A stretch of DNA of 64,000 nucleotides from an uncultured Clostridia bacterium (GTDB lineage: Bacteria > Bacillota > Clostridia > TANB77 > CAG-508). Positions 8,278 through 60,984 of the stretch are shown in pieces. Every line of letters starts with the position of its first letter. The stretch's first letter is position 1. The stretch spans positions 1,916 to 65,915 of the forward strand of contig CAKPDR010000001.1 in NCBI GenBank assembly GCA_934149075.1, read 5' to 3'. The notes beneath the pieces were generated by a model. It saw nothing but the letters and a program-made list of their open reading frames with translations, did no database searches and was not told where the DNA came from. The translations under genes were made by a program, and so were the position numbers.

Positions 8278-8856
8278 CTATCTATTTTTTGCTATTACAT
8301 TAAATATATGACAATGCTTTATTTTTCCTGATCCCGTAAGACCATCTTTTTCAACTTCTTTAAATTTAATTATTTCAAAATCCTTAAACAGTTGTATTGT
8401 CTGACGTTTAGTCAAGAAAGTCATTTCTTCTTTTATATTTTTCCACTCATCATTGTTTCCAAAAAAATTTCCAACAAAATATCCATCGTTTAAAATGCTA
8501 TTTCTTATCTTATTCCATAATTTTTCAAAATCATTCTTATTGCAAAATGAAAGACTAAAATTAGATACAATTAGATCATTTTTTTCTAATTCAATACACT
8601 CAAATTTTTGTTTTGAAAATTTAAACTTCTTTAATTCATCTTTAGATAGTTTTTCTACTATTCTAGATTTAACATTTTCTTTATCTATTGCTAATACATT
8701 CCAGCCGTTTTTTATTAAATACACTGTATCTCTTCCAGCACCACACCCAAGTTCAACTGCATTTCCCGGTCTCACATTTAATTTAATGAATTCTTTTACA
8801 ATGTAATTTGGTTCTGCATTTTTTGTATTATCATAATATTTTTCTATACTTCTCAT
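8278..8856 (-). CDS. TehB-like class I SAM-dependent methyltransferase
   Basis: 192 aa with SAM motif I VELGCGAGRDTVYLIKNGWNVLAIDKE. A paralog lies at 57662..58102. Confidence 0.7.
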   Translation of the reverse strand: MRSIEKYYDNTKNAEPNYIVKEFIKLNVRPGNAVELGCGAGRDTVYLIKNGWNVLAIDKENVKSRIVEKLSKDELKKFKFSKQKFECIELEKNDLIVSNFSLSFCNKNDFEKLWNKIRNSILNDGYFVGNFFGNNDEWKNIKEEMTFLTKRQTIQLFKDFEIIKFKEVEKDGLTGSGKIKHCHIFNVIAKNR

Positions 8857-9311: not shown

Positions 9312-9373
9312 GGCAGAAAGTTTTTTAAAAGAAAGCCTTTATTTCCAGTCTTTTGGAGATTTATTTTTTAGAC

Positions 9374-9397
9374 TTTCCCTTTATTTTCCCTTTATGT
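9374..9397. repeat. arm-type direct repeat (2x TTCCCTTTAT), left copy
   Basis: The 24-nt ctttccctttattttccctttatg is identical to 56548-56571. Confidence 0.55.
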
Positions 9398-11961: not shown

Positions 11962-12530
11962 TCAATTCATTTTTGAATTGAATGTGAGGTGGAGATCTGC
12001 ATTTTACTAATCCATATAAAAACAAAAAGAGGTCAAATCTACCTTTACAGATAAATTCAACCTCTCGATTTCGTTTTTTTAACATTATTAATACACATTT
12101 GTCCAAATAACCTACACTCCTCTTTGTGTAGGCTGAGATTTATGTAATAATGCTCAAAACTACACTAACATATATCTCTTCTTTTTCATTTTTCCTTAGA
12201 TCATTTTTCTAAATTAGTGTAGTGTTTTATTGGATATTAAAATAATTGAAAAAAGCACACAAATAACTTATAAATGGTTAGTTGTGTGCTTAGTATATTT
12301 ATTTATATTGTTCAATTTATTTTGTGATATATCCATTTTCTCCCCCAACTCTTTATTACTTTTCCATCTTTGGTAGTTTAGGGATTTTTCTTTTGCTTTT
12401 ATGGATTCTATCACAATTTTTTTGCAAAGGTTGTCGAATTATGAGAAAAGGTGTAATTTATTGTATAAAATTTTATTTTTATACTTTTATATAATTTTGA
12501 TATTAAAAAAGTCTAGCCTTAAAAATAAAA

Positions 12531-14855: not shown

Positions 14856-17217
14856 TTTCTATTTGCTTCATTATCCTTATATAATTATCTAAATCATCAT
14901 CAAATATTTCTTTTTTTACTTTTAATGCTGTATAACCCATATCTTGAATTACTGGTAAATTAAATATTTGTGGTTTTAATAATTGTGAATAGTCCTGTTT
15001 TATATATTCGTTTAAAATTGCCGTAATAATTTCTTTTTTATTTTCTTCTAAATTATTATAAACTTTTGACTTATATACCTTTTCAAGTCTTTCCTCTTTT
15101 GATAACGGTGGAATCTTGTATCCTAAAAGACTAATCACATCAAATTTGTCTATATTGTATCCTAATTGCAATTTCATTTTATTTATAAATTCTGCAGATA
15201 ATAATAATGTTCTTGTGAATTCATCTTTATCCGATGCCTTCATAAAAGATAAATAAAAATCATTAAATTTAGGATATTGATCTAATATATTGTTTTTTAC
15301 ACAGTTATCAATATTCTCTCTTACTAGTTGTCCATTTTCATCTCTATATTGCACTATTTCATTTTCAATTTTAACTTCTTTTCCTTTTATATATGCTTTT
15401 TCAAAATGTCTTTTTTCTATTTTTGTTTGATTCGTTAAGTTTTGAGAAATTCCTTTTGGAAATCTATCTTTTTCATCTATATTCATAACAGCAACTGCAT
15501 CTCCATCAAATTCAGGATCTTCAAATTTAGTATAATTCTTTCTAAAATCTAAAATTGTAAAATGCAATTTGCTTTTCTTTTCATCATCTATAACAAAATT
15601 TTCATTTATTCTAGTTCCCCTACCTATTGTTTGCTTAAATTCAGTCATAGAACCTATCGTTTTATCTAATACTATTATTTCACAAGTTTCACTATCAACT
15701 CCTGTTGACATCAACTTACTTGTTACTGCAATAACTGGATATTTTGTATTTGGATCTGTAAAATTTTCTAATTCAGCTTTTCCGATTTCATCATCTCCAG
15801 TTATTTTCATAATATATTTCGGATTTTCTGCTACTAAATCTGAATTTAAATTTTTCAATTTTAAAACCATTGCATCAACATGTTCTATATTTTCGCAAAA
15901 TACAATAGTTTTCGCATATCTGCAATTATTTTCTTTCATATACTCTGTGATTCTTTTAGCAACAATTTCTCGTCTTGAATCGATTGCAATAGTTCTATCA
16001 AATTCTTTTTGTTCATAAACTCTATTTTCTAATGGCTGACCATAGATATCTTTTTCATCTATTGAAGGTTTATAACCGTTTTTATCAATATCAAGCTCAA
16101 TTGAAATTACTCTATACGGAGCCAAAAATCCATCTTCAATACCTTGTTTAAGCGAATATGTATATAGCGGTTTGCCATCAGTTTCTGCACAAAAATACCC
16201 TATATTTGAGACATCTTCAGTTTCTTTAGGTGTCGCAGTAAGTCCTAATTGAGTTGCACTGCTAAAATATTCTAATATTTCATGCCAATTCGAATCTTCA
16301 GATGCTGAGCCTCTATGACATTCATCAACAATTATCATGTCAAAAAAATCTGGTGGTAATTCTTTATAAAAATCCTTTTCACTTGATTTTAGTTGTTGAT
16401 ATAATGCTGTATAAATTTCATACGCAGTATCTTTTTTTATTCTATCACTTTTTATTTTAACCATAACTCCTGCTTCAACGAATGGTTTAAAATCTTTTTG
16501 CATAGTTTGATCTGCTAATACATTTCTATCAACTAAATATAAAATTTTCTTTTTGGTTTTTGATTTCCATAATCTCCATACAATTTGAAAAGCAGTAAAT
16601 GTTTTTCCTGTTCCAGTTGCCATTACTAGCAACAATCTATTTTTTCCTTGCGCTATTGCTTCAATCACTCTATTAATAGCAATTCTTTGATAATAACGAG
16701 GTTTTTTAGGATTATCTCTTGTAGTATTTTCATAATAAGGTTGGTTTATTATATTTATTTCTTCCTCTGTCAATTCTTTTTCTTGTATATATCTATTCCA
16801 TAATTCTTCAGCATATGGAAAATTATTAATATTCATAATTTTATTATTACCTGAAATCATATCTTGTTCAATCAAATCTTTTCCATTGGTAGCATATGCA
16901 AACGGAATATCTAGTATATTAGCATATTCAATCACTTGTTGATAACCTTCCATTGCTGAATGTTCAATTCCTTTTGCTTCAACAAGAGCCAAAGGAATAT
17001 TATTATGATAAAGTAACAAATAATCAGCTTTTTTAGGTTCTCCTCGATATACTTGTTCTCCATTTATATTAACTCTTCCCTTTGTAAAGTAATATTCCAT
17101 TATAATATTTTCTGAATTATTTTTCCATCTTTCTTCAATGATAGGTGTTATATATTTTCTTTTTGTATTTTCTTCATTTTTTAATTGTTCTTCTAAATCT
17201 TTCCCTTCAAATTCCAT
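14830..17217 (-). CDS. hsdR: type I restriction endonuclease R subunit
   Basis: 795 aa. The HsdR_N PD-(D/E)xK region is KKADYLLLYHNNIPLALVEAKG. The SF2 helicase motifs are I MATGTGKT, II VDECHRG, III GLTATP and VI QTIGRGTRI. Confidence 0.85.
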   Translation of the reverse strand: MEFEGKDLEEQLKNEENTKRKYITPIIEERWKNNSENIIMEYYFTKGRVNINGEQVYRGEPKKADYLLLYHNNIPLALVEAKGIEHSAMEGYQQVIEYANILDIPFAYATNGKDLIEQDMISGNNKIMNINNFPYAEELWNRYIQEKELTEEEINIINQPYYENTTRDNPKKPRYYQRIAINRVIEAIAQGKNRLLLVMATGTGKTFTAFQIVWRLWKSKTKKKILYLVDRNVLADQTMQKDFKPFVEAGVMVKIKSDRIKKDTAYEIYTALYQQLKSSEKDFYKELPPDFFDMIIVDECHRGSASEDSNWHEILEYFSSATQLGLTATPKETEDVSNIGYFCAETDGKPLYTYSLKQGIEDGFLAPYRVISIELDIDKNGYKPSIDEKDIYGQPLENRVYEQKEFDRTIAIDSRREIVAKRITEYMKENNCRYAKTIVFCENIEHVDAMVLKLKNLNSDLVAENPKYIMKITGDDEIGKAELENFTDPNTKYPVIAVTSKLMSTGVDSETCEIIVLDKTIGSMTEFKQTIGRGTRINENFVIDDEKKSKLHFTILDFRKNYTKFEDPEFDGDAVAVMNIDEKDRFPKGISQNLTNQTKIEKRHFEKAYIKGKEVKIENEIVQYRDENGQLVRENIDNCVKNNILDQYPKFNDFYLSFMKASDKDEFTRTLLLSAEFINKMKLQLGYNIDKFDVISLLGYKIPPLSKEERLEKVYKSKVYNNLEENKKEIITAILNEYIKQDYSQLLKPQIFNLPVIQDMGYTALKVKKEIFDDDLDNYIRIMKQIEIELYKEEN

Positions 17218-26596: not shown

Positions 26597-28813
26597 TTAT
26601 TCAAATTTTATTATTTCTTCTGCTGATGCATATATGTCTAATCTATTTTCTATGTTTACTCTATTGACAATCCAATTTCTCATAGTACATTGATCAATAA
26701 ATTCTTGCATTCTATTTTTTCCAAACATTTCTTTTAATGTTATTACTACACCAAATTTTAATCCCCTATCTCTTTCTAATCTTTCTTTATTAGTTAATTT
26801 TATTCCCCATAAATTAGAATTAAAACTTTTTCTTGGTACCTTTGTATCTTTTATTTCATCTACTACAATTTTAACATTATCCCATTTTCTATATAGCTCT
26901 CGAGCAGTTGCTTCATTGGTTGCTCTATCTAATTCCCCGCCTTGAGTATTTCTATTAATTGATCTTATATCTTTCACACCCATTCTGCCAAATTGTAAAT
27001 CTAATTCCGTATTGGTATAATCAACTCCTTGACTTCTAGTACATTTAGGAAAATAACATAAAACAGCCTTAGCATAAAATGGAAATTTTTCATTTACCAC
27101 TGGTACAGGCAAATTGTATGTATATGTATAATACGAATTTGCATTTCCTTCTATATAAAATTTAATTTCATCTTTTTGACCTAACATTACCTCTGATATC
27201 TTTGTTGGAACTACTCCATATCCTAAATATTCTTCATCTTTGTTGGTTTTATTCCAGCCTACTGCGGAATCAATTATTAAAGCTTTAGCAATTTCTCTAG
27301 ATAAATTCATTTTATCTATCAGGTAACTCAATTTTCTAGAAATCCAAGGTGCAGCAAATGATGTTCCTCGTTGAATATCTAGTCCAGTAGGAGTACATAC
27401 ATTTATATATTCATTTGTATCTCCGCCAAAAGCACAAACATCTGGTTTAACAAAAAAAGATAATACCTTTCCTTTTCTAGCATATGATGCTTTGTCTCCA
27501 TTTTTATCTACAGCATTGACAACTAATGAATTTATAGAATCAGCAGGAGCACCTATTCTCACTATTTCTTTTGAATTTTTTTTATTAGTTCCAGCTACAA
27601 CAAATATAACATTATTTTCATACTGTATTTCATCTAAAGCTGCTGCTTCTGGTGATATATAATTTTGACTTATTTCAAATTTTGAGCCCAATGAAATATT
27701 CCATACATGAATATCTTTATTTTCTTTTACGATTCTTTTTATTTGATTAATTATGTCATATGAATTATTAACTCCTGCTTTTGCGACTCCAAAGTGTCTT
27801 ACTTTAAAAAGACCACATTCATCATCCCATTTTGTATTTGTTCTAGCTCCATCTACAATTATTGAAGATACTTCCGTTCCATGGACATAATCTTCAGCTT
27901 CTCTCGGCATATCTTTATTTAAGCAATCTGTATAATCAACCCATTTGCTGAAATATACATTTTCATCAAATAATGTATCTATAACACCAATAGTTGGTTC
28001 ACTCGTTGGTAATGGCATATCTAAAAAATTTATGTTTGTGTCTATTTTATTTTCTGTTTCTTGATAGTATGTTGCAAAATCTGTCATAGCCATAGAAACT
28101 AAATATGAAGCATTTTGTCTAATTTTAAATAATATTGATGAATTATTAACATATATTGTATCATTTGAAAACACTTCATATTCTGTATTCTTCAAACCAA
28201 TTCTATTCATTAGTTCTACTATATTAATTCCTGTATCAAAAATGGTTATATAAGATTTTACTTCATCAATAATATCTCCATTTTCATATACATCAAACTT
28301 TTCAATATCTATCAAATCTGTTACATACTTTTTAAATGCACTTTTAACCATATTATGCTTTTTTAATAAAGTTTCTTTTTTGTCTATTAAACTAAAATTT
28401 TCCGAATTTATAACGCCATCAAAGCCATTATTTATAATATCTATTAGTATATTTATTCTTTCTATGCTTTTATTTAAAGTCTTTTTATCAATATAATATG
28501 TAATTATATGCTTTTTATTCTTAATGTCAGAAAACCTTACTCCTCTAACATAATTATTTGATGGTTCACTTCCAATAGAGAAAAATCCTTTTAGTCTTGA
28601 TGACTTTGGAATCACTCTATTGTAATATACACTAACTAATGCTCCTGGTATTATAGTTTTATCTTTCCAAAATTCATTTAATCTCTCTAAATCTTTTTTC
28701 AACTTAATCAAATCATCAGATTTTACCTCTTTTGACTTAGCTATTGAATAATTTATTGGTCCTTTGTATTTTGATGATTCTAATCTTCCTTTTAATTCTA
28801 ATAAATCATTCAT
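26597..28813 (-). CDS. subtilisin-like S8 serine peptidase (IetS-like)
   Basis: 738 aa with a catalytic triad: Asp in IGVIDTLFDE, His in HGTEVSSII and Ser in GTSFAAPWIS. It overlaps the upstream ATPase gene by 8 nt. Confidence 0.8.
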   Translation of the reverse strand: MNDLLELKGRLESSKYKGPINYSIAKSKEVKSDDLIKLKKDLERLNEFWKDKTIIPGALVSVYYNRVIPKSSRLKGFFSIGSEPSNNYVRGVRFSDIKNKKHIITYYIDKKTLNKSIERINILIDIINNGFDGVINSENFSLIDKKETLLKKHNMVKSAFKKYVTDLIDIEKFDVYENGDIIDEVKSYITIFDTGINIVELMNRIGLKNTEYEVFSNDTIYVNNSSILFKIRQNASYLVSMAMTDFATYYQETENKIDTNINFLDMPLPTSEPTIGVIDTLFDENVYFSKWVDYTDCLNKDMPREAEDYVHGTEVSSIIVDGARTNTKWDDECGLFKVRHFGVAKAGVNNSYDIINQIKRIVKENKDIHVWNISLGSKFEISQNYISPEAAALDEIQYENNVIFVVAGTNKKNSKEIVRIGAPADSINSLVVNAVDKNGDKASYARKGKVLSFFVKPDVCAFGGDTNEYINVCTPTGLDIQRGTSFAAPWISRKLSYLIDKMNLSREIAKALIIDSAVGWNKTNKDEEYLGYGVVPTKISEVMLGQKDEIKFYIEGNANSYYTYTYNLPVPVVNEKFPFYAKAVLCYFPKCTRSQGVDYTNTELDLQFGRMGVKDIRSINRNTQGGELDRATNEATARELYRKWDNVKIVVDEIKDTKVPRKSFNSNLWGIKLTNKERLERDRGLKFGVVITLKEMFGKNRMQEFIDQCTMRNWIVNRVNIENRLDIYASAEEIIKFE

Positions 28814-29855
28814 TGTTTATCCCCCTTGATACACTACTTTTTGAAATTCCCGTTAATTTTTCAATTTCTCTAACAGAAAAACCTTGCTCTTGAAGTTTTT
28901 TCAGATCATTTGTTAATTTTTCATTTGTTATAGTTTCATAAATTTTTGACAGATATCCATATTCCATAGTCATATCACTAAAAGCTATTGAACTCCTTAT
29001 TATATTTTTAAGATCTCCTGGATATGGTAATGTTTCTACCAAACTATAAATTTTATTAAGTATTTTATATTCAGGTTTAACATTTGAATATTTTTTAAGT
29101 TCAGAAGTAATTATTGTATCCGCTATTTCCTCTAAATCTTCTTTACTATATCTATTAAAATCAACAATATAATCAAATCGTCTTAATAATGCTTTATCAA
29201 ACTGTTTATATAAATTTGTAGTTGCAATCAATAATATTTTTTCATTTAAATTATCAAATTCTTTTAATAAAGTAGATGTTACCCTTCCCATTTCTCTTAA
29301 ATCATTAGAATTAATCCTATCTAATGAAATAGCATCAATTTCATCAAATAAAATAATTACTTTATCTGGTTGTTTTAGACAATTTATATCATCAAAAACT
29401 TGAATCAAATTTTTAGAAGTCTGACCAAGTTTACTATCTACTATTCTATCAAATTGCACTGAATATAATTCTCTATCTAAAATTCTTGCAATTTGTTTGG
29501 CTGCTTCTGTCTTTCCTGTTCCAGAGTCTCCAACAAATAAAAATTTATTTACATTAGATTTTTTATTAACAGCATTTAATATTCCCATTATATCTATTTC
29601 TATAGGTTTTGGTACTTTAAATGTATTTGATGGATTATTCATCTTTACAAAAAATTCTGAATAATCATCAACGAATTGAGGACTAAAAGTATTGGCATTT
29701 GATAATAGTGCCATTATATATCTTGCCAACTCTTCATCCCCACTATTTTGAAAATCTGTTGCAATTTCATAAGCTTCATTTCTAAATTCTTTATCATTTC
29801 CATCTATGTGATATTTTATTAAATTAATTACATTCTTCTTTTTCATATCAATCAA
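28806..29855 (-). CDS. AAA-family ATPase with a C-terminal HTH (IetA-like)
   Basis: 349 aa with Walker A FVGDSGTGKTEAAK and Walker B IILFDEIDA. The C-terminus, REIEKLTGISKSSVSRGI, is an HTH. Confidence 0.75.
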   Translation of the reverse strand: MIDMKKKNVINLIKYHIDGNDKEFRNEAYEIATDFQNSGDEELARYIMALLSNANTFSPQFVDDYSEFFVKMNNPSNTFKVPKPIEIDIMGILNAVNKKSNVNKFLFVGDSGTGKTEAAKQIARILDRELYSVQFDRIVDSKLGQTSKNLIQVFDDINCLKQPDKVIILFDEIDAISLDRINSNDLREMGRVTSTLLKEFDNLNEKILLIATTNLYKQFDKALLRRFDYIVDFNRYSKEDLEEIADTIITSELKKYSNVKPEYKILNKIYSLVETLPYPGDLKNIIRSSIAFSDMTMEYGYLSKIYETITNEKLTNDLKKLQEQGFSVREIEKLTGISKSSVSRGINNE

Positions 29856-33279: not shown

Positions 33280-33999
33280 TTATTCTTCAAATAATACCTT
33301 TTGCATTCCATAAGGATTATTTAAAAAATCTTTATATATTTTATAAATTTCTGTATCTTCATATTTGATTTCTTTCATATTATTATTCATATCAATTATT
33401 TTTCCATATTTATACGATAGTAATATTGGAGAATGTGTTGCTATTAAAAATTGTGAGCCATTTTTAGCTAATTCGTGTATATAACAAAGCAAAGTCATTT
33501 GTCTTTGTGGAGATAAAGCTGCCTCTGGCTCATCCAAAATGTATAAACCATTATCCCAAAATCTATGTTCAACCAGTTTCAAAAAAGATTCTCCGTGTGA
33601 ACAAGAATGCAAATCTTCTCCTCCATAAGTTGTATAGATCAAATCACTATTATTACTAATATCCGTTGCAACATTATAAAAAGATTCTGCTCTTAAAAAA
33701 AATTTTGTTTTAGGTACTCCAAACTTGCTAATTGTTACATATTTATATAATTCTGAATAATCATCATAGTTCGAAAATTGCATATTATTACTACCGCCTT
33801 CTGGATTTAATCCTAAAGCAATAGCAATAGCTTCTATAAGTGTAGATTTTCCAACTCCGTTTTCTCCATAAAATAATGTAACAGAATTATCTATTTTTAA
33901 TTCATCAAAATTACTTAAACATTTTATATTAAAAGGATATTTACTATTATCTACATTCCCCTTATTTAATCTTACTCTATTTACAAATAAATTTTCCAT
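33280..33999 (-). CDS. small ABC-type (AAA_21/OLD/RecF-like) ATPase
   Basis: 239 aa with Walker A FYGENGVGKSTL, a signature-like SHGES, Walker B and D-loop ILDEPEAALSP, and H-loop ATHSP. Its own terminator hairpins lie downstream. Confidence 0.7.
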   Translation of the reverse strand: MENLFVNRVRLNKGNVDNSKYPFNIKCLSNFDELKIDNSVTLFYGENGVGKSTLIEAIAIALGLNPEGGSNNMQFSNYDDYSELYKYVTISKFGVPKTKFFLRAESFYNVATDISNNSDLIYTTYGGEDLHSCSHGESFLKLVEHRFWDNGLYILDEPEAALSPQRQMTLLCYIHELAKNGSQFLIATHSPILLSYKYGKIIDMNNNMKEIKYEDTEIYKIYKDFLNNPYGMQKVLFEE

Positions 34000-46809: not shown

Positions 46810-47043
46810 TTATCTATTCCGTATTATATTAAAAATATAATCAACTTGTTTATTTTTTAAAATCTCTTCAAATGTTTTATTTTGATTTGCTTCTATATCT
46901 TTCATGGTTGTTTTTAAGTGTTTCAATCCCTCTTTTCTAGCTTGTTCAAAACTGCTATATACATTGGAATAGTAACTTGTATCAAATACAATATCACAAT
47001 CTAATAAAGTAAATACGCTTACTTCTACTAAATATAATTTCAT
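46810..47043 (-). CDS. hypothetical protein (77 aa)
   Basis: ORF. Confidence 0.35.
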   Translation of the reverse strand: MKLYLVEVSVFTLLDCDIVFDTSYYSNVYSSFEQARKEGLKHLKTTMKDIEANQNKTFEEILKNKQVDYIFNIIRNR

Positions 47044-47082: not shown

Positions 47083-47520
47083 TTAATCCATCAATATTAT
47101 AATTCTTATATCTTTATTTTCTTTTAAATCTCTACTTTTGGCAATAATCTCTTTCATTGAATTTTCTACAGTATCATCTATATAAATTTCTTTTTCTGAA
47201 AGTGTTTCTATTATTTTTGTAAGTCCATCCCATTCTTCACTATTTATCTGTCCACTTTCTATTTTGCTATAATCAATATTTGAATCATTCGTTAAGATTT
47301 TATTTATAATTTGCTTTTTGTTTATCTTTGAACTAAAAATTGCAATTGGATTATTTATTTTTTGTAACACATTAGAAATGACATCCAATGCTACATCTTT
47401 TGTATAATCCTTTAAGTTTAATATAACCATTTCTTCTTTATCTGACTTTTTTATACTATCATCTATGTTTGAGATTTCCATTAAAATTTTGTTAACCTCA
47501 CTAATTTCTTTTATTTTCAT
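47083..47520 (-). CDS. hypothetical protein (145 aa)
   Basis: ORF. Confidence 0.4.
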   Translation of the reverse strand: MKIKEISEVNKILMEISNIDDSIKKSDKEEMVILNLKDYTKDVALDVISNVLQKINNPIAIFSSKINKKQIINKILTNDSNIDYSKIESGQINSEEWDGLTKIIETLSEKEIYIDDTVENSMKEIIAKSRDLKENKDIRIIILMD

Positions 47521-47538
47521 TATAATTTCTCTCCTTCT

Positions 47539-48417
47539 CTATATGCTTGTTTCTATTTTAATAACTTCCCATTTTCTATTAAATATCACTTTACAATAAG
47601 CATATTCATTAGAAAAATAATGTTTTTCTATTATTATTTGTAAATCTCCAAATTGATTTGGAGATTTTATTGGTGATTCTTTTTTTAATGCTTCTATTGT
47701 TTCTTCAATTGTCATATAACCATTTCTGTTTAATATATTTAACTTATCTTCTGAAAAATATATGCTATAAAAATAGACTGAATTAGGACTAGCAAAAGAG
47801 TCAAAGTCAAGCATTTCGTTATTATCTTTCATAAACTCTTCTACTGCTTTCTTTTCTTTCATGAAATCCACTTTATTTGATTGTTCTTTTTCTCTTTTTA
47901 GAAGATATTTATCAGAAGCAAGTTCAAATTCCGAATCTATAATCGCTATTTCAAAGGACATATCCATCATCAAATAAATTGTATCTTCTGTCATTCTTTT
48001 ACGAATGTACACATCTGTATTTGGTGTATCTATATCTGTATATTTGTAAAAAACATGATATTTATCATATTGCTTTAAATCTTGGTTCAATAAAAATAGG
48101 TCTTGAATACATATATGTTGTTTATTATCTATTAATTTCGTAATCGTTTCTCTTTCTTCTATTGGTATTCTGCCTTTTGGATCATAATCATATTCTAATA
48201 ACTTATTATCACAATATTCTTTATTTAATTCTAATCTAAATTTTAATACACTCTTTTCATTAAACCTACCACCTGTCAAAATAGTATCTATTTCAAATTT
48301 TCTGATTGCTTTTCTTTCTATAATTGCTGTGTCTAAATTTGAAAAACCTAAAGCCAAATATTCAAACTTCTTATTTTTCAATATATCTTGACTTATTTTT
48401 TGTATTACATAACTCAT
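47539..48417 (-). CDS. hypothetical protein (292 aa)
   Basis: ORF immediately downstream of the AAA+ gene. Confidence 0.4.
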   Translation of the reverse strand: MSYVIQKISQDILKNKKFEYLALGFSNLDTAIIERKAIRKFEIDTILTGGRFNEKSVLKFRLELNKEYCDNKLLEYDYDPKGRIPIEERETITKLIDNKQHICIQDLFLLNQDLKQYDKYHVFYKYTDIDTPNTDVYIRKRMTEDTIYLMMDMSFEIAIIDSEFELASDKYLLKREKEQSNKVDFMKEKKAVEEFMKDNNEMLDFDSFASPNSVYFYSIYFSEDKLNILNRNGYMTIEETIEALKKESPIKSPNQFGDLQIIIEKHYFSNEYAYCKVIFNRKWEVIKIETSI

Positions 48418-48503: not shown

Positions 48504-50117
48504 CTAGACGCCGAATCCTATTCTTCTTTTATTTTCTACAGTTTTAATTTTATCTACCACATTTTTTATGTCTTGTGGTATTATTGTATACAAATCATCA
48601 CTATTGTTTTCTTTGATTCGCACAGCTTGTTCAAATTTTATTTTTTCTACTAGATTTCTGACTAAACGACCATTTCCAAAATTTTCTTTTTTTAATTTTA
48701 CTTCGTTTTCAAAATACTGGGTTACAATTTCTTTACAACCTTTTTTTAATTTAAGAAAATCTTCTTTAAGTTGTTTTAAAAATATTTCATATAATTCTTC
48801 TACATTATAATCTGGAAAATCTATAAAAAATTGTATTCTGCTTTTGAAACCTGAATTTGCATTAATCAGTCTTTCCATTTCTTCTGGATAACCTGCTAAT
48901 ATAACACACAAATCTTCTCTATGATTTTCCATTTCTTTTATTAATGTTGCTATACATTCATAGCCATAGTCATTCCTTCGTCCATCTGAGCCTTGTATTA
49001 GTGAATATGCTTCATCTATAAACAATATCCCACCTATTGCTTGCTCAATAACCTTTTTTGTTTTTGCTGCTGTATGTCCTACATATTCACCAATTAAGTC
49101 TTCTCGACAAACTTCTACAAAAATTTTTTTAGTGCTTAATATTTCATTTTCTGCAAATATATCGCCGATTATTCTTGCTACAGTAGATTTTCCTGTACCA
49201 GGATTTCCACTCATACACATGTGTAGCATAGTTCTTCCTTGCCCGCCTCGCTTGCCATCTACTTCAATGTAGCTTAATATTTTCCTTATTTGTTCTTTTA
49301 TATCATTTAATCCAATTAAAGAATTTAATTGGCATAATCCATGTTCGGATTTTTTATCTGTTTTAAGATTATCCCATTTAAACAATATATCGTCTAAATC
49401 AAAACAATCTGTATTTATTTCTTTTAATTCTCGTTTATTGGCTTTAATACAAGCTCTAATAAGTGTTTTATCCAATTCTATCATTGAATTTTTTGCAATA
49501 GATTCTATTATCCAATCTTCTAAATTTATTTTTAAACCATTTTGTTTTGCTACATTGTTTATATATTGTATCTTTTCTTCTTGCGTAGGTTCTATTATAT
49601 TTAGCTCCCAATAAAAGTTTCTTTGTAACATTTCTAGTGTGTTATCTTTATCTCTCTTTGACATTAATTTTGAATCTTTTATTATAACAATAAATATACA
49701 AAATGGATTCTTCTTAATTATTGATTCTAACTTTCTATCAATCTTATTTTCATCATCTATAATATACAGTTTATTTTTCTCAAATTCAGTATTTTTTAAA
49801 GTATATAAATCAGTAATAATTGTTATTCTATTATCTTCTATTATGTTCTCTTTTATCAATATTTTATTAATTATCTCTACTTCTTTTTCATAATCTTTAG
49901 AATCGTTATCGCAGAACAGTATAATATTATTATTTCCTATATTTATCTTATTTTCTTTTTTTAGTCTAATATATTCTACATACTCTTTTAGTTTATTTCT
50001 AAAAAAAGTTACACCATAACACTTATCTAAACTTTTTAAAATATCTTCTGTAGTTTCTTCTTTCTTTATTATGCTATGTTTTTCTAAATTTTCCATTTTA
50101 ATTCCAATTCCCTTCAC
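48504..50117 (-). CDS. AAA+ ATPase of the SpoVK/CbbX type with an unknown N-terminal domain of about 280 aa
   Basis: 537 aa with Walker A MSGNPGTGKSTVAR, Walker B ILFIDEAYSL, and the SpoVK-like context LIGEYVGHTAAKT. Confidence 0.7.
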   Translation of the reverse strand: MKGIGIKMENLEKHSIIKKEETTEDILKSLDKCYGVTFFRNKLKEYVEYIRLKKENKINIGNNNIILFCDNDSKDYEKEVEIINKILIKENIIEDNRITIITDLYTLKNTEFEKNKLYIIDDENKIDRKLESIIKKNPFCIFIVIIKDSKLMSKRDKDNTLEMLQRNFYWELNIIEPTQEEKIQYINNVAKQNGLKINLEDWIIESIAKNSMIELDKTLIRACIKANKRELKEINTDCFDLDDILFKWDNLKTDKKSEHGLCQLNSLIGLNDIKEQIRKILSYIEVDGKRGGQGRTMLHMCMSGNPGTGKSTVARIIGDIFAENEILSTKKIFVEVCREDLIGEYVGHTAAKTKKVIEQAIGGILFIDEAYSLIQGSDGRRNDYGYECIATLIKEMENHREDLCVILAGYPEEMERLINANSGFKSRIQFFIDFPDYNVEELYEIFLKQLKEDFLKLKKGCKEIVTQYFENEVKLKKENFGNGRLVRNLVEKIKFEQAVRIKENNSDDLYTIIPQDIKNVVDKIKTVENKRRIGFGV

Positions 50118-50217
50118 AATTTTAAAAAATCCTATCTACATTATTAGTATATAGGATTTTTTATTCATTGTAAAACATATTGGTCATATTATGTATTTAT
50201 ACTACATTTAATTCTAT

Positions 50218-51195
50218 TTAATATCTTTTTAGTATTTCTTCTAAATTATTTTTTAATTCTTCTCGAATTGATGTTGGTTCTAAAACTTCCACATAATTCA
50301 AATATTGCATAATCCACATTTTTAGTCCTTTAGGACAAACATATAATTTCACTTTAAAATGATTATCATCTATTTTTTGAATTTCTATATTGGTTCCGAA
50401 TTTTTCTATTACAGCATCTAATATTAACATATCACATTTTAACTCTATTACTTCTCTCTCTCCACCAAACATATATACAGAACTTTGTACAAAATCTTTA
50501 ATTGATTGATTAGTTTTAACACTTGGTATTTCAGTTGATTTAATATTTTTAATTCTATCTAATCTAAAATATGATAATTCATTAAATTTTTCGTTATATG
50601 CTATTAAGTAATAAAATTCATTTTCGCAAAGAATAGCATAGGGACTTACTCTTTTTGTTTTTTCTAATTTTAATTTTTTATTTATATCATATTTATAATA
50701 TTCAAATTCAACTTTTGTTTTAGATTTTATACTATATGATAATACTTCTATATTATTTAATACATCTTTGTTTATTGTTTTTATATTTTTGCTGTATACT
50801 TCTATTTTTTCTGTTTTGTTAATGGTTTCTTGTTCATATATGCTTAATAAACCCTTTAATTTTTCTATTATTTCAACTGAAAATGCTTCTTCCATAAATT
50901 TTGAATAATGTAGTAAATCTATCATCATTTTTATTTCACTAAATTCAAAATCTTTTGTTCTTAAATAGTACCCCTGTCTATTTTCTTTAAATGTTTCTAT
51001 ATCTATATCTAATTTCTCTATTAGCACTCTTATGTTTCTTCTTACCGTTCTGTCTTCTATTTCTTCATCAAATTCTTCTTTTACATATTTTATAATATCT
51101 TTTACACTTAAAACATGATCTACATCTGAATACTTCTTTAGAACATCATAAATATAAATTATATTTCCTAAATTTGTATGTAGTTTATCTTTCAT
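50218..51195 (-). CDS. WYL-domain transcriptional regulator (BrxR/CapW-like)
   Basis: 325 aa with an N-terminal wHTH and the WYL core AYNEKFNELSYFRLDRIKNI. Confidence 0.65.
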   Translation of the reverse strand: MKDKLHTNLGNIIYIYDVLKKYSDVDHVLSVKDIIKYVKEEFDEEIEDRTVRRNIRVLIEKLDIDIETFKENRQGYYLRTKDFEFSEIKMMIDLLHYSKFMEEAFSVEIIEKLKGLLSIYEQETINKTEKIEVYSKNIKTINKDVLNNIEVLSYSIKSKTKVEFEYYKYDINKKLKLEKTKRVSPYAILCENEFYYLIAYNEKFNELSYFRLDRIKNIKSTEIPSVKTNQSIKDFVQSSVYMFGGEREVIELKCDMLILDAVIEKFGTNIEIQKIDDNHFKVKLYVCPKGLKMWIMQYLNYVEVLEPTSIREELKNNLEEILKRY

Positions 51196-51238
51196 ATATT
51201 ATTCCTCTTTTATTGTAATTACTATATATTATAATTTT

Positions 51239-52519
51239 CTATTCTTCAAATACAGAATCAATCTTTTTACAGTACTCTTTATCTATACTTTCTAATCTAT
51301 TTATTATCTTTTCTATTGATTGATTTATAAATTTCTCATTCGAAAAATTATATTTTTCTGTATATCTTACTTTTTCATCTTTTTCGTAATCATAAGCACT
51401 TATTCTATCTTCATTATCATTTATTCTATCTTTTGGCATTTTTCCTATATTAATTTCTTTCAATTTTTCTAATTCTTTATTATTAATATTCCCCTCAATA
51501 TGTAATGCTATGCTTAATTCTACATTCTCAAAACCTAATATATTATTTTTTAGGCTAACTTCATAATGTATACCATTAAATAATCCATTTTTATTTTCAT
51601 TTTTCCAAGTAATTCTACCGATTTGAATCAAAGTGTCATTATTTTTTTTATTGATTTCATATCGATTATCTTTATTAAATAAGTTTTCTATTTCTGTTAC
51701 TATTTTTTGAACTAAAATTTTATTATTATTACTATATTGTTCTTCTATAGATGCTATTTCTTTACTATAATTGATATAAGTTTTTATAGCTATATTACTC
51801 AAATCAAATTCTTCTTCTTTCATATAATTTTTCATCATTCTTTCTAACTCCTCTAAATATTTATATTTATACATTTCTTTTTCGTTATAATCATGTTCAT
51901 TTATTTTACATATTTGCATAAATAATTGACTGTATGTAAGTGGTATAAAATTTTCATCGCTAGGTTCTGACTTGTTATAATTTGGTTTTAAATAAATAAA
52001 AATCACATTAATTTTACCAGATGTTAATTCTTTTTCTGTTTCTTTCTTCTTTTTCATTATATACCTATAATAATTTCTTGTTTGTGTTCCGTTTTCCTTT
52101 GAATTTATTTTATTCTCTATTATAATCCAAGTATTTGAATATTTAATTAGCACATCTATTCTTTTATTATCATCAATGACTTTTTCTCTTTCTATACCAA
52201 TAAATTTTTGTTCATTCACTGTATCTTTAAATTCTTTTATGTCATTACTCCATCCTATTTTAATATCTTCATTTTGAACATTACTTTTAGATATGTCTAA
52301 TGAATTTATTAGAGAACAAATAGGCTTGTTTCCCATTCCATTTATTTCCGAATTAAATATAAATGCAAGCCAATCAGATATAAAATTTTCATCATAATGA
52401 CTTTTATTCAAAATGTCAAGAACTGTAATTTCGGAACCTTTTATATCTATTTTTTTCAAATTTTCTATTAGTTCTTCTATACTTTTCATTTTTAACCTTC
52501 TTTCTATTATTATGCACAT
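51239..52519 (-). CDS. PD-(D/E)xK nuclease-like protein (predicted)
   Basis: 426 aa with the core GIEREKVIDDNKRIDVLIKYSNTWIIIENK, which supplies the E, D and ExK residues. Confidence 0.45.
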   Translation of the reverse strand: MCIIIERRLKMKSIEELIENLKKIDIKGSEITVLDILNKSHYDENFISDWLAFIFNSEINGMGNKPICSLINSLDISKSNVQNEDIKIGWSNDIKEFKDTVNEQKFIGIEREKVIDDNKRIDVLIKYSNTWIIIENKINSKENGTQTRNYYRYIMKKKKETEKELTSGKINVIFIYLKPNYNKSEPSDENFIPLTYSQLFMQICKINEHDYNEKEMYKYKYLEELERMMKNYMKEEEFDLSNIAIKTYINYSKEIASIEEQYSNNNKILVQKIVTEIENLFNKDNRYEINKKNNDTLIQIGRITWKNENKNGLFNGIHYEVSLKNNILGFENVELSIALHIEGNINNKELEKLKEINIGKMPKDRINDNEDRISAYDYEKDEKVRYTEKYNFSNEKFINQSIEKIINRLESIDKEYCKKIDSVFEE

Positions 52520-52529
52520 ACTTTTTTGC

Positions 52530-54020
52530 TTATATATCTTTCAATTTTTCCCATATCTTAACCATCGCATAAGTATCTAATTTGCAATAAACTAAAAGTC
52601 CTTGCCTTATTTTTTCTTGTTCTTCTTTTGTTTTTTGGTCAAGTGATGCAAATACACTCATTGCCTCTCCACCATTATGTACTAACGGTAAATTATGATA
52701 ATCCAGTTCTGGATCATCTGGAAATAATGCTGGTAAAACATATTTAATTGAATAAGAACCTTGCATCTCTTTACAATAATACATTCTATCTACAAAAGGA
52801 ATCATTAAGTCTTTTATATTGTTATGTATTATTAATAAATCTTCTCTTAAATCTTCATATAATTCTGCTAGATTTTTTATTACCATTTTTTCAAATTGCA
52901 TATTATATGCTAATACACAAGCATTTTCTGGAATATCATTTACTAACTTTTCAGCTAGTTTTCTTCTTGGATCAATTCCTGCCTCTGCTAAAAATTCTTT
53001 ATGTTTGAGTTCTCCATTTTCATTTTCTATATAATGCAATGAATATTGAAAAGGTATTTGCATATATGGTCTTATTCCATCATATTTTGGAATTGGTTGT
53101 TGGAATGTTTCAAAATCCAAAAAGTATAATGGATAGTATAAATTTTTCATAAAAGCTCTAATTTTTTCTTTATCGATTACAGGCTCTTTATTTAATTCTT
53201 CAAATTCCACTTGTTGCTTAAACTTCCAATCTATATCTTGATTTAATAAATCTTTAAATGTATAAATACCTTTCTTATATAAATTAAGTTTTTGGTCTTT
53301 TCTCATCCTTCTAATTTTGAATACATTGTTTTCTGGTAGCTTTCTTGTACAATAATTCCAATACTCACAATTATATGGATTAAAACAATGTTTTCCAATA
53401 TCTTGTATTGGCTCGCTTTCTTGTTCCATATATTTATTAATTTCATTGATTTTATCTTTGATTTCTTCTTGTTTTGAAAATGCAATTTCTGTTACATCTT
53501 CTATATTAAACAACTTGTCTAATTCAAGTTCTCCATTTCTTACATATTGATTGTTAATGTACACTATACTTGCTTCTTTTACTTTATATCCTAAGTTAAG
53601 AAGTATATATACTTGATATGAAATATCATCTAAATAGATATCATTTATTGAAGTAGAACTTTTTACTTCATATATTTCTATTCCATCTACATCATTTTTT
53701 AAAATATCTATACTACAAAAATTATTGTTATAATCAAAAGATGCTTCTGTAATAATATTAGGCTTTTTTTCTATATATTGTTTTGTTTGTTCTATCATTT
53801 TATATAAATCACTTTGATATTCAATATTGATATATTCCCCAAATAGTTTTCTTGCAAGTTCACCTACTTCTGTTCCATTCTCTAAAACTGATTCACTTGC
53901 TGTTTCTTCTGCACATTCTGGTTTGTATTTATTTAACCATAATATTTTATTACATTGTTTTGCTTTGCAGTATTTAGATTTAGACAAATGTACATTCTCC
54001 ATATAATCCCTTTCTTTCAT
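52530..54020 (-). CDS. RecB/Cas4-like Fe-S nuclease with a DUF2779-type C-terminal domain (TM0106-family-like)
   Basis: 496 aa with an N-terminal Cys, then DILK...EIYEVKSST (the D..ExK motif), and the cluster HCFNPYNCEYWNYC (Cx5Cx4C). Confidence 0.55.
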   Translation of the reverse strand: MKERDYMENVHLSKSKYCKAKQCNKILWLNKYKPECAEETASESVLENGTEVGELARKLFGEYINIEYQSDLYKMIEQTKQYIEKKPNIITEASFDYNNNFCSIDILKNDVDGIEIYEVKSSTSINDIYLDDISYQVYILLNLGYKVKEASIVYINNQYVRNGELELDKLFNIEDVTEIAFSKQEEIKDKINEINKYMEQESEPIQDIGKHCFNPYNCEYWNYCTRKLPENNVFKIRRMRKDQKLNLYKKGIYTFKDLLNQDIDWKFKQQVEFEELNKEPVIDKEKIRAFMKNLYYPLYFLDFETFQQPIPKYDGIRPYMQIPFQYSLHYIENENGELKHKEFLAEAGIDPRRKLAEKLVNDIPENACVLAYNMQFEKMVIKNLAELYEDLREDLLIIHNNIKDLMIPFVDRMYYCKEMQGSYSIKYVLPALFPDDPELDYHNLPLVHNGGEAMSVFASLDQKTKEEQEKIRQGLLVYCKLDTYAMVKIWEKLKDI

Positions 54021-54253
54021 TTTATTTCTTTTATTTTATCAAACTTTATATATTCCGTCCACTATTTTGGTCATAAAATGTATCTATACTTTTAAAACCA
54101 CATTTATTTTTCCTTTTGCATATTATTACATGTTCTCTATAATTATATTTTATTATTTTGGAATGTATTTATTTGAAAAAGATTTATTTATATTTTCAAA
54201 TTTTAGATATTCATCTACAAATTACTATCTTGTATTTCGATTATATCATATTT

Positions 54254-56547: not shown

Positions 56548-56571
56548 CTTTCCCTTTATTTTCCCTTTATG
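56548..56571. repeat. arm-type direct repeat (2x TTCCCTTTAT), right copy
   Basis: Identical over 24 nt to 9374-9397. Confidence 0.55.
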
Positions 56572-57661: not shown

Positions 57662-58102
57662 TTATTTTTTCCTTGCAATAACATCAAATATATGCCAATG
57701 CTTCATTTTGCCTAATGCGGTGGCAGAATCTTTTTCAATGCAATTATTTATTTTGTTCCAGAACTCTTTAAATTTATCTTTCTTGCAAAAAGGTAAACAA
57801 TAATTAGCTATAAGTAAATTAGCTTTTTCTAATTTAATATTCTCAAAATTTTGCTTTTGAAATCTAAATTTTTTAATTTCTTCATCATTTAATCTCCTAG
57901 AAATTCTTCCTTCTACATCTTCTCTATCAATTGCAAGCACATTCCAATTATTCTTTATTAAATACACTGTTGAATCTCCTGCACCACACCCTAATTCAAT
58001 TGCTTTACCATGATTACATTGTATATTTTCGATAAAATACTTAACATTTTTTCTAGGTATATCTATTTCGGTTTTGTCATAATATTTTTCTATATCTCTC
58101 AT
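57662..58102 (-). CDS. TehB-like SAM methyltransferase paralog with an internal deletion of about 48 aa
   Basis: 146 aa that aligns to the 8278..8856 product over residues 1-122 and the C-terminal 24 aa (IELGCGAGDSTVYLIKNNWNVLAIDRE). It lacks the segment GYFVGNFF...EVEKDG. Confidence 0.6.
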   Translation of the reverse strand: MRDIEKYYDKTEIDIPRKNVKYFIENIQCNHGKAIELGCGAGDSTVYLIKNNWNVLAIDREDVEGRISRRLNDEEIKKFRFQKQNFENIKLEKANLLIANYCLPFCKKDKFKEFWNKINNCIEKDSATALGKMKHWHIFDVIARKK

Positions 58103-59342: not shown

Positions 59343-59418
59343 CGCGGGGTGGAGCAGTTGGCAGCTCGTTGGGCTCATAACCCAAAGGTCGGAGGTTCGA
59401 GTCCTCCCCCCGCAACCA
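59343..59418 (+). tRNA. initiator tRNA-fMet (CAT)
   Basis: 76-nt cloverleaf with a C1:A72 mismatch and three G-C pairs in the anticodon stem (ttggg-ctcataa-cccaa). The T-arm is ggagg-ttcgagt-cctcc and the CCA is encoded. Confidence 0.9.
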
Positions 59419-59884: not shown

Positions 59885-60984
59885 CATTAATCGAGTAGAG
59901 GATAATTCTTAATGAATTTCTCCCCTCCCACACCACCGTACGTACCGTTCGGTATACGGCGGTTCAATCTGTACATTCAATATGTACTTTTGTATATTGG
60001 TCTAGTAGAAATACTAGACCTCTTTTTCTTAATCTCTCTGTATTAATTTCGAATTGTATATATGTTGTTTTGCATATTTGATAATATCCTTTTCTAGTAT
60101 TAGCACAAGTAAATGCTATTTCGTACGATACTCCAAGTTGTCTTAAGGCTTTATATCTTTTTGTTATTAGTCTGTCTTGATTTACTGTATCAAAGAATTT
60201 TTCTAAATCAATGTCTATTATCCAGTCATACCAGTCGTTTAAATATTCTAATGCCTTTATTACTGCTTGCTCACAGCTTCTTCCTGGTCTGAACCCATAA
60301 CTGTTATTGTTGAACTGCTTTTCATATATTGGACTTATTACTTGAACCATTGCTTGTTGTATTATTCTATCCATAACTGTTGGTATCCCTAGATTTCTTT
60401 TCTTTCCATTTTCTTTTGGAATTTGAACTCTTCGTACTGGTTGGGGTTTATATTTTCTATTTCTTATTTGGTTTGTTATTCTTTCCTTATTTTCTTTTAT
60501 ATAATCAGCTATTTCTTCTACTGTTATACCATCAACCCACGATGCTCCCTTGTTTTGATATACTTTCTTATATGCCTTGTTTAGATTTTCTGGATTAAGA
60601 ATTTCCTCTAAAAGTTCCATGTCTGTTTCCTCTTTCCTTTCCGAAGATAGATAAATCATTTATTTTGAGTAACCCTTTAAGATATGCTCATACTCTCCTC
60701 ATTATGTTCACAATACCTCACAGGGTAAGTCATTTAACTTTCCTCTTTTACTCGCTTGATTTACTACTTAAGGTTACGCATATCTTTGGGGCTATAACTT
60801 GTTTAGTAATCTTACCCTTTTAAACAGCCTTAGTATCAAATTTTTATACATCCAGCCAAGATTTTGATACACACTTCCTTCACTTCCATCTCACAATGGA
60901 TAGCTTGTGCTTCTCTATGTGGTTGGCGATATATACCTCCACTACGGACTTTCACCGATTAGTTAAACGACATGCCTGTCGCAC
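59885..60984 (-). mobile_element. degenerate group II intron (class-C-like, ORF-truncated), about 1.1 kb
   Basis: The 5' GUGCG lies at 60984-60980 on the minus strand. An RT ORF follows, and a domain V-like hairpin gaaccgccgtataccgaacggtacgtacggtgg plus a domain VI-like segment lie at 59893-59960. The insertion is immediately 3' of a terminator hairpin and U-run. Confidence 0.6.
59964..60659 (-). CDS. group II intron reverse transcriptase, C-terminally truncated (RT domains 0-4 only)
   Basis: 231 aa, LLEEILNPENLNKAYKKVYQNKGASWVDGITVEEI...RRVQIPKENGKKRNLGIPTVMDRIIQQAMVQVI...YGFRPGRSCEQAV...IDIDLEKFFDTVNQDRL. It lacks YADD, the X domain and the En domain. Confidence 0.8.
   Translation of the reverse strand: MIYLSSERKEETDMELLEEILNPENLNKAYKKVYQNKGASWVDGITVEEIADYIKENKERITNQIRNRKYKPQPVRRVQIPKENGKKRNLGIPTVMDRIIQQAMVQVISPIYEKQFNNNSYGFRPGRSCEQAVIKALEYLNDWYDWIIDIDLEKFFDTVNQDRLITKRYKALRQLGVSYEIAFTCANTRKGYYQICKTTYIQFEINTERLRKRGLVFLLDQYTKVHIECTD

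Follow-up and report, generated by a model that had tools for sequence, protein, structure and literature searches.

Four co-directional open reading frames (ORFs), named A to D at this locus, lie on the minus strand of a 64,000-nt stretch of DNA from an uncultured Clostridia bacterium (the window, to whose positions all coordinates refer), with gaps of 10, 43, and 100 bp between them in the ORF listing. They raise the question of whether a Cas4-like nuclease, a second nuclease, a WYL-domain regulator, and an AAA+ ATPase form one functional module and what such a module does. An earlier reading of the sequence by itself (the original prediction) had located the four ORFs correctly and had regarded them as a candidate defence or anti-defence module unlike any named system. 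The last point held, as the combination fits neither a PADLOC v2 system nor any paper in the searched literature; Cas4 is the only PADLOC v2 model that covers A, and the literature search found no paper linking DUF2779, the family of A, with a WYL gene or a D-type ATPase. The analysis below suggests a nuclease/ATPase module of two operons under WYL control, carried by a ca. 47-kb integrative and conjugative element (ICE) and serving most likely as an inducible defence against phage or other mobile DNA (probability of ca. 0.5). Judging from sequence comparison, what appears to be new here is a conserved core with a defined candidate operator within a mobile-element island of defence type that is under WYL control.

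The window proteins were compared by tblastn with 23 related loci; the closest relatives were uncultured gut Clostridia. A and C were linked in almost all of these loci, D and two downstream genes, E and F, followed in many, and a counterpart of B was absent from all 23. By DNA comparison, the shared block extends from 54116 to 47085. A further 88 loci with A relatives of 31–64% identity were fetched, and all genes within 6 kb of A were clustered in 121 loci (99 dereplicated groups). The top neighbour of A was the WYL gene (27 of 99 groups) and the second was the D-type AAA+ gene (16 of 99); every other neighbour family was found in at most 8 of the 99 groups. When the groups were binned by the percent identity between their A and that of the window, WYL and D were present in 9 and 8, respectively, of the 12 groups with at least 65% identity, in 3 and 3 of the 22 groups with 55–65%, and in 17 and 5 of the 65 groups with 30–55%. 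In the branch in which A is 46–55% identical, the usual order has WYL immediately 5' of A. The A-WYL pair recurred in Oscillospiraceae and on Campylobacterota plasmids, and a Lachnospiraceae locus whose D is 44% identical has the order McrBC, D, WYL, five other genes, DUF2779, and type I restriction-modification (R-M). The A-WYL-AAA+ neighbourhood, whose conservation and occurrence in defence islands had been proposed as checks, recurs across genomes, also in defence-type islands that hold McrBC/LlaJI genes, type I R-M genes, and PADLOC candidates. These observations suggest that the conserved unit consists of A, C, and D, joined in close relatives by E and F; the predicted linkage stands, but a fixed four-gene unit does not. 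Every gene of the block is, according to dN/dS, under purifying selection (A, 0.11–0.15; C, 0.08–0.17; D, 0.13–0.27; E, ca. 0.3; F, ca. 0.34; B, 0.24–0.32).

A 26-nt sequence, GTATARATACATWWTATGACCAAWAT, has exactly two copies in the 64-kb window (0 expected), one 5' of A and one 5' of D, and close relatives carry this operator-like box at the same two positions. Its core, CAT-N3-ATGACC, matched 50 times in 3.09 Mb of fetched loci. Eighteen matches lay within 200 nt 5' of an A gene and 21 within 200 nt 5' of a D gene (39 of 50), none of the 50 lay 5' of a gene other than A or D, and the remaining 11 were elsewhere, with ca. 12 expected by chance. The box-bearing loci include lineages in which A is only 56–72% identical (L003, L010, L018, L049, and L069). 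The 6-nt spacing between the box and the −35 element, common to both window promoters, was identical in L003 and L010, where P_D has a −35 TTGAAA and a −10 TATAAT at the same position. No A/D box was detected 5' of A in L003, and the core was absent from the distant branch with the order WYL-then-A. Ca. 100 bp 5' of A are conserved along with the block, and P_A falls within that stretch. A generic promoter scan of the AT-rich region gave 78 sites against 74.5 expected; individual predicted promoters were used only where they coincided with the conserved box.

The hairpin at P_D (−22.3 kcal/mol, z −6.3 by RNA folding) is conserved in the close family; a generic terminator scan did not pick up this AT-rich structure. 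It should stop transcripts coming from C and spare those initiated at P_D. Since only the region of the ribosome-binding site (RBS) is conserved 5' of C, C is probably co-transcribed with A and the cassette gene between them. No Rfam regulatory RNA was found in the block. Taken together, the sequence features point to two transcription units sharing the same box, one running from P_A through A, the cassette, and C and the other from P_D through D, E, and F, instead of the single operon that the WYL protein had been thought to gate. The true starts of A, B, and D likely lie at the later codons given in Table 1; for A this follows from the related sequences, which lack the first ATG, and from the RBS that precedes the second. 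Downstream of D, where three small ORFs had been reported, only E and F were found between 47083 and 48417.

Table 1. Features of the module and its surroundings in the window (inferred features are marked putative, predicted, or likely)
Feature	Position	Strand	Description
Gene A	ORF 52530-54020; likely from second ATG, 52530..54002 (490 aa)	-	Predicted Fe-S Cas4/RecB-like PD-(D/E)xK nuclease with DUF2779 DEDDy 3'-5' exonuclease-like domain
Gene B	ORF 51239-52519; likely from M11, 51239..52489 (416 aa)	-	PDDEXK_4-type nuclease (predicted), exchangeable cassette of slot 1
Gene C	50218..51195	-	WYL-WCX transcription factor with putative (winged) helix-turn-helix (HTH), nearest DriD
Gene D	ORF 48504-50117; likely from M8, 48504..50096 (530 aa)	-	Tandem AAA+ ATPase
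Gene E	47539..48417 (292 aa)	-	Fold unassigned; kept in close family only
Gene F	47083..47520 (145 aa)	-	DnaB C-terminal-domain fragment; last gene of shared block
77-aa ORF	46810-47043		Outside the pair E and F (47083-48417)
Box A	54064..54089	-	26-nt operator-like box, GTATAGATACATTTTATGACCAAAAT, 6 nt 5' of P_A -35
Putative promoter P_A	54033..54061	-	-35 TGGACG, 17-nt spacer, extended -10 TG-n-TAAAAT (consensus scan)
Box D	50177..50202	-	Second 26-nt copy, GTATAAATACATAATATGACCAATAT, 6 nt 5' of P_D -35
Putative promoter P_D	50146..50174	-	-35 TTTACA, 17-nt spacer, -10 TATACT
Hairpin and U-run	50123..50163	-	Overlaps P_D -10 and start region; likely A-B-C terminator
ICE right direct-repeat copy	56548..56571	+	24 bp; left copy 9373-9396 beside integrase gene

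On sequence comparison, B is a precisely exchanged cassette and not the fixed member that it had been taken for. Homology of 87–95% stops at the stop codon of A (52517–52533) and resumes ca. 50 bp ahead of C (51246–51256), and elements with flanks of this identity have the gene swapped for others, gene for gene. Elsewhere, this slot 1 holds PDC-S02 proteins, a PDC-M15A protein with a small ORF, uncharacterised proteins, or four small genes, or is empty. Slot 2, between C and D, contains a McrBC/LlaJI-like pair in one lineage, and the slots between D and E and between E and F contain genes of 163 aa and 349 aa in other loci, making a strongly mosaic region of at least four such slots. The latter two genes, absent from the window, are at 11995–12501 and 13397–14446 of L030; extra cassettes in these two slots were also seen in L002, L014, and L020 and gave no family matches. 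The cassette junctions are plain gene boundaries, at which repeat searches revealed neither att-like nor integron-like sites; a 39-bp "duplication" at the E-F slot was discarded as a junction repeat, being merely a shared RBS and start region. The slot occupants include PDC-S26, PDC-S02, PDC-M15A, PDC-M10A, PDC-M13, and type II restriction endonuclease/LlaJI-McrBC-like genes, and ca. one-third of them match PADLOC defence or candidate families.

Only 27 relatives of B were found. The close ones (82–99% identity) are always within the same block, which there lies in a chromosomal island with the order tRNA-Met ... RhuM-[block]-DUF4321-RadC-MreB, and a relative with 33% identity stands alone beside a type I R-M system. 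The idea that all slot-1 occupants are divergent B-family nucleases was rejected: only Arcobacter proteins are clearly related, those of L016 and L003 are marginally B-like, and the PDC-S02 types, among others, are unrelated. An Aliarcobacter butzleri plasmid carries, in this order, genes for a DnaB_C protein, PD-(D/E)XK, DUF2779, and WYL, and the PD-(D/E)XK protein belongs to the B family (BLASTP, 8e-6; hhalign, 93% probability); B-family proteins adjoin DUF2779 and WYL on Arcobacter plasmids. Hence B-type nucleases appear to be facultative partners of A that recur in a second phylum. The comparisons are consistent with A, C, and D as the functional unit and B as one of several alternative plug-in nucleases, and the cassette nucleases would be swapped by homologous recombination via the conserved flanks.

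A matched DUF2779 (PF11074; E = 4e-46, 156.8 bits against a cut-off of 23.3, full model 1–126) and Cas_Cas4 (PF01930; E = 2.5e-5, 24.9 bits against 22.7), and the PADLOC Cas4 model at 1e-9. In an alignment of 26 sequences, the residues of a RecB-type D...ExK, QxxxY motif (D105, E118-x-K120, Y135, and Q136) and the Cas4-like cysteines (C23 and C212-x5-C218-x5-C224), predicted to be Fe-S cluster ligands, were near-invariant. The N-terminal cysteine of the Cas4-type pattern had thus been recognised correctly; the triad is Cx5Cx5C and not Cx5Cx4C. The long C-terminal domain noted earlier was identified as DEDDy 3'-5' exonuclease-like, with intact motifs: D302, E304, E377 (replacing D), Y478, and D482 are near-invariant, the motif assignment following PMC13621843. 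DUF2779 is regarded as uncharacterised, with a predicted 3'-5' exonuclease fused to a Cas4-like domain (PMC3985635, PMC13621843), and A is accordingly predicted to be a double nuclease that combines a Cas4-like PD-(D/E)xK domain with a DEDDy exonuclease domain. Since the scanned proteins included no cas families beyond the Cas4-like and WYL matches and the TRF output contained no CRISPR-like array, the Cas4-like domain of A seems to be a "solo" one and not a Cas protein. A shares the two-domain layout and the conserved catalytic residues with solo-Cas4/DUF2779 proteins such as MMSYN1_0389 of JCVI-syn3.0 and the UU173 family. However, it retains all four Fe-S cysteines, of which the Mycoplasma DUF2779 protein has two, scores far below the cut-off of the NCBIfam UU173 family (52 against 225), and, unlike these comparators, has WYL and AAA+ genes as linked partners on mobile elements.

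An exact-protein look-up of A gave no match, nor did tblastn of A against cultured phage genomes, and megablast of the region against phages and plasmids gave essentially none. Two IMG/VR contigs classed as viral (L120 and L121) carry an A relative of 49% identity with WYL 5' of it, L121 with an AAA+ gene 3' of it as well. An uncharacterised family of ca. 280 aa without a Pfam match (L093, 11507–12346, with relatives in L054, L069, L088, L092, L105, and L114) adjoins DUF2779 or WYL in seven dereplicated distant loci and may be another partner.

B matched PDDEXK_4 (PF14281; E = 1e-13, 52.1 bits against a cut-off of 22.3) and five PADLOC PDC-S26 models (best E = 7e-13). Its D...ExK core is conserved, as expected of the PD-(D/E)xK-like protein that it had been called, and E102, D112, E125-x-K127, and Q136 are invariant. 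With catalytic residues intact on alignment, A and B both look enzymatically active, and the HMM (hidden Markov model) matches assign no gene of the cluster to a housekeeping pathway. PDC-S26 is an unvalidated candidate consisting of a single-gene PDDEXK_4 nuclease. B shares its family matches but fills a defined slot within a larger conserved module, and B-family proteins also adjoin DUF2779 in another phylum.

C contains WYL (42.7 bits against a cut-off of 21.8) and WCX (31.6 against 23.9) domains by Pfam; for a putative N-terminal winged HTH the only match was HTH_12, at 16.2 bits under a cut-off of 21.4. When its WYL-WCX profile was compared with the PDB, DriD entries were matched at E of ca. 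1e-8, PafBC at 0.02–0.04, and 7qfz, which we take to be BrxR, at 0.44. The DriD entries are 8TP8 and 7TZV (PMC10853764). The assignment of C as a WYL regulator is therefore retained, but by profile its closest relative is DriD and not the BrxR/CapW type. No BREX or CBASS families were found among the neighbours of C, and the BrxC_BrxD Pfam match of D (17.0 bits) is under the cut-off of 22.2. Single-stranded DNA (ssDNA) is the ligand of the WYL regulators DriD, PafBC, CapW, and SiwR (PMC9186387, PMC11804915, PMC11662680, PMC10693628), and by analogy C may sense ssDNA. C has the same WYL-WCX architecture as the regulators of the DriD, PafBC, and SiwR damage regulons, with a WYL-WCX region most like that of DriD; the box lies just 5' of the −35 element, as expected of an activator, and the putative targets are nucleic-acid enzyme genes. 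In contrast, the DriD site, ATACGAC-N7-GTCGTAT, differs from the box, the genes of the DriD-type SOS-independent regulon (didA, recA, recJ, etc.) are not part of the module, and the regulon here is a compact mobile block of Clostridia with cassette slots and restriction-type neighbours.

D gave Pfam matches to AAA (PF00004, 65.7 bits) and AAA_lid_6 (51.1 bits), both in its second module, which has a Walker A GNPGTGKS and a Walker B FIDEA with GNPGTGK and FID invariant. Against the NCBIfam models for SpoVK (TIGR02881), CbbX (TIGR02880), and EccA (TIGR03922), D scored 256.9, 212.1, and 203.2 bits, below the cut-offs of 422.95, 459.25, and 466.65, respectively. It matched CbbX at 1e-49, the second module being 39% identical over 275 columns. 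By these scores D is within the SpoVK/CbbX/EccA clade of AAA+ proteins but a member of none of the three families, and the label SpoVK-type holds in this wider sense. The N-terminal half, previously called unknown, aligned collinearly with the C-terminal half (hhalign E = 2.6e-4); its Walker A position is degenerate, with no P-loop, and a Walker-B-like LYIIDDE is retained. In the structure check that had been suggested, a full-length AF2 (AlphaFold 2) model of D (mean confidence score, pLDDT, 79) matched, in Foldseek, CbbX, followed by Cdc48/p97, Rix7, Pex1/6, and ClpA over 570–620 columns. Sequence and model thus suggest a degenerate AAA+ module at the N-terminus, followed by a second module of the active type. 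A single-sequence AlphaFold model of residues 1–260 was set aside (pLDDT 36). In its CbbX-like second module and the alignment of its model with tandem D1-D2 proteins, D resembles CbbX/EccA/SpoVK and the type II AAA+ unfoldases (Cdc48/p97, Rix7, and ClpA), from which it differs in the first module without a P-loop and in the sub-cut-off equivalog scores; there is also no Rubisco, type VII secretion, or sporulation context around it. The identification of D as IetA was rejected, the match being partial (E = 1.9e-7, residues 300–370) with no adjacent protease, and tblastn against plasmids detected no full-length D-type protein.

E gave no match in four HMM libraries and matched only 7 representative clusters among 1.84e9 proteins. 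F matched DnaB_C (E = 2.6e-18), but as a replicative DnaB helicase it was discounted: the 145-aa protein covers positions 211–311 of the 435-position TIGR00665 model at 72.9 bits (cut-off of 385), lacks a Walker A/P-loop, and ends at Walker B. F has lost Walker A yet is under purifying selection. Small DnaB C-terminal-domain proteins recur 3' of or beside DUF2779/WYL in Clostridia and on an Aliarcobacter plasmid, as in L007 (17510–18217), L010 (14288–15073), and L128 (4250–4840).

The window, with ca. 25% G+C and all genes in one direction, holds chromosomal genes (e.g., mfd) and a conjugative element encoding an integrase, a type I R-M system, an adhesin and a sortase, VirB4- and VirD4-like ATPases, a relaxase, and ParB-, RadC-, and ArdA-like proteins; a DnaD-like replication initiator gene lies just 5' of the cluster. 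An exact 24-bp direct repeat, CTTTCCCTTTATTTTCCCTTTATG, occurs at 9373–9396 and 56548–56571, 47 kb apart, with the integrase gene at 9414–10610. Its copies are likely the att sites of a ca. 47.2-kb ICE that contains the cluster. The type I R-M genes of the ICE (12558–17217, minus strand) encode a fused methylase and specificity subunit (765 aa) followed by HsdR (795 aa). An IetAS pair (26597–29855, minus strand), composed of the S8 protease IetS (PADLOC, 2e-60) and the AAA ATPase IetA (2e-45), lies amid the ICE conjugation genes. Also within the conjugation module is a gene for a 239-aa ABC/AAA_15-type ATPase (33280–33999, minus strand), which matches the GajA, PtuA, and AriA ATPase models and has no visible nuclease partner. 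Just beyond both ends of the ICE are paralogous SAM-methyltransferase genes (8278–8856 and 57662–58102, minus strand), the second with an internal deletion. Next to tRNA-Met (59343–59418), a group II intron domain (Rfam RF00029, 43.5 bits; 59890–60659, minus strand) directly adjoins a truncated reverse-transcriptase-like ORF, and the pair resembles the remnant of an intron.

In related loci, the restriction and defence neighbours of the block are McrBC, type I R-M, AbiEii, and RhuM, and the same block is also found outside ICEs, in chromosomal islands. In SXT ICEs, too, a WYL gene adjoins a variable defence hotspot (PMC9122589). The present ICE has this arrangement, with variable genes between conserved ICE genes and a WYL gene adjacent. 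As in SXT ICE hotspot 5, whose WYL gene is of the BrxR type, BrxR-BREX, and CapW-CBASS, a WYL-WCX regulator with a putative winged HTH stands next to exchangeable defence-type genes, the genes are on an ICE, the cargo varies among near-identical elements, and an operator-like box is located at or 5' of the −35 element. Unlike the regulators of those hotspots, C is not the first gene but sits behind a conserved nuclease and a cassette, and it is tied to two conserved partners, the DUF2779 nuclease and the tandem AAA+ ATPase, whose promoters share the box. In contrast to BrxR-BREX and CapW-CBASS, no BREX or CBASS genes are present at this locus.

Based on these results, we propose that the module would work as follows. 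P_A would drive operon 1, encoding the double nuclease A, the cassette nuclease (here B), and the regulator C, up to the hairpin, and P_D, overlapping this terminator, would drive operon 2, encoding D, E, and F. C would bind the 26-nt box at both promoters and, as all characterised WYL regulators of its architecture do, would respond to ssDNA arising from DNA damage or from foreign DNA that replicates in or enters the cell, and ssDNA-bound C would switch on both operons together. A and, where present, the cassette nuclease would then degrade DNA ends or ssDNA, and the CbbX/Cdc48-like unfoldase D would assist. In this scheme we infer the substrates, the ligand, the protein that binds the box, and the defence phenotype. 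Several findings favour a defence role: ca. one-third of the genes in the slots have PADLOC matches to defence or candidate families; the module contains or adjoins restriction systems; its nuclease gene is exchanged in the manner of the effector modules of defence systems; it resides on an ICE, plasmids, and variable islands; and WYL genes are known beside the variable defence hotspots of SXT ICEs (PMC9122589). A more far-reaching form of this proposal, which we hold only tentatively, is that DUF2779, a DriD-like ssDNA-sensing WYL protein, and a tandem AAA+ ATPase may constitute an unrecognised, widespread inducible immune system of gut Firmicutes with relatives on Campylobacterota plasmids, its two operons triggered through one operator, acting as a docking platform that swaps effector nucleases (PDDEXK_4, PDC-S02, PDC-M15A, and McrBC/LlaJI).

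Several observations weigh against a defence role or against parts of the scheme. A is unusually conserved for a defence gene, with thousands of clusters at 67–76% identity and the low dN/dS given above, and one member of its family is quasi-essential in the minimal Mycoplasma JCVI-syn3.0 (PMC13621843). DriD, the nearest characterised relative of C, governs an SOS-independent DNA-damage response and not immunity (PMC10853764). The PDC families of PADLOC are computational candidates based on guilt by association, and the PADLOC matches of the slot cargo did not contrast cleanly with those of the flanking genes, which also include defence-type genes. Most of the distant A relatives (30–65% identity) have no WYL or D gene in the available flanks (WYL in 20 of 87 groups), and D-type ATPases also occur without A or C. 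The box has no clear palindrome, and C is put forward as the protein that binds it from adjacency only. Furthermore, L001 and L017, in which A is followed by a PDC-S02 cassette and D, retain the box 5' of D but have no WYL gene; the regulator there must act in trans or have been lost.

The strongest competing explanation, which we nevertheless consider rather unlikely, is a DNA-damage response or repair regulon on mobile elements, in which the ssDNA-sensing C induces the end-processing A and a remodelling ATPase to act on damaged element or host DNA, the cassettes being unrelated hitch-hikers. It would account for the kinship of C with DriD and for the strong conservation of A, whose DEDD domain is like that of the mitomycin-repair exonuclease MrfB and whose family is quasi-essential in JCVI-syn3.0, as mentioned above (PMC13621843). 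In addition, some loci adjoin ruvAB or polA, and DnaB-like, DnaD-like, and PolIII-alpha-like genes recur nearby. On the other hand, the distribution of the module is patchy, on ICE, plasmids, and variable islands instead of core repair loci; it is found repeatedly among restriction and candidate defence genes, with effector-like swapping of cassettes; and CapW shows that ssDNA-sensing WYL factors control immunity too (PMC11662680).

An improbable alternative is that A, C, and D do not form a functional module but are independent genes that share a recombination hotspot of mobile elements and are adjacent through common descent of one island. The highly mosaic nature of the region, the occurrence of D without A or C, the many A relatives without both partners, and the fact that many of the sampled loci are from related gut Clostridia are what this explanation would predict. 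However, pure coincidence is unlikely because the box is common to A and D, with identical spacing in lineages whose A is 56–72% identical; besides, the trio recurs in rearranged order in Lachnospiraceae, the A-WYL pair is present in Oscillospiraceae and on Campylobacterota plasmids, and WYL and D were the top two neighbours in an unbiased count. Least probable is an anti-defence role, as the original prediction had allowed, or an establishment role for the block as part of the ICE leading region, with early expression of the nucleases and ATPase after transfer so that recipient defences are neutralised or the incoming strand is processed: the block does lie with the ArdA, RadC, and ParB genes on one side of the relaxase gene and shares their orientation, with the DnaD-like initiator gene just 5', but no known anti-defence family was matched, and this function is unlikely because the same block, at 91–96% identity, also resides in chromosomal islands without conjugation genes (tRNA-Met, RhuM, and radC-mreB; ruvB-polA).

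Under either the defence or the repair explanation, the sharply bounded cassette slots offer a practical mining ground for new nucleases. If the repair regulon were true, the locus would represent a DriD-type SOS-independent damage response in Firmicutes spread by mobile elements. If the defence role is true, it would be a new multi-gene system with modular exchange of effectors and, after CapW, the second case of immunity controlled by an ssDNA-sensing WYL protein, here on conjugative elements from human and animal gut microbiota. DUF2779 is a large family whose function is not known, with thousands of close relatives in gut Clostridia and further members in Mycoplasma and Campylobacterota. 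This locus offers testable handles on it, namely a WYL regulator of its own, an AAA+ ATPase as partner, and a defined 26-nt box shared by two promoters, and an immune system built on these genes would give the DUF2779 family its first biological role.

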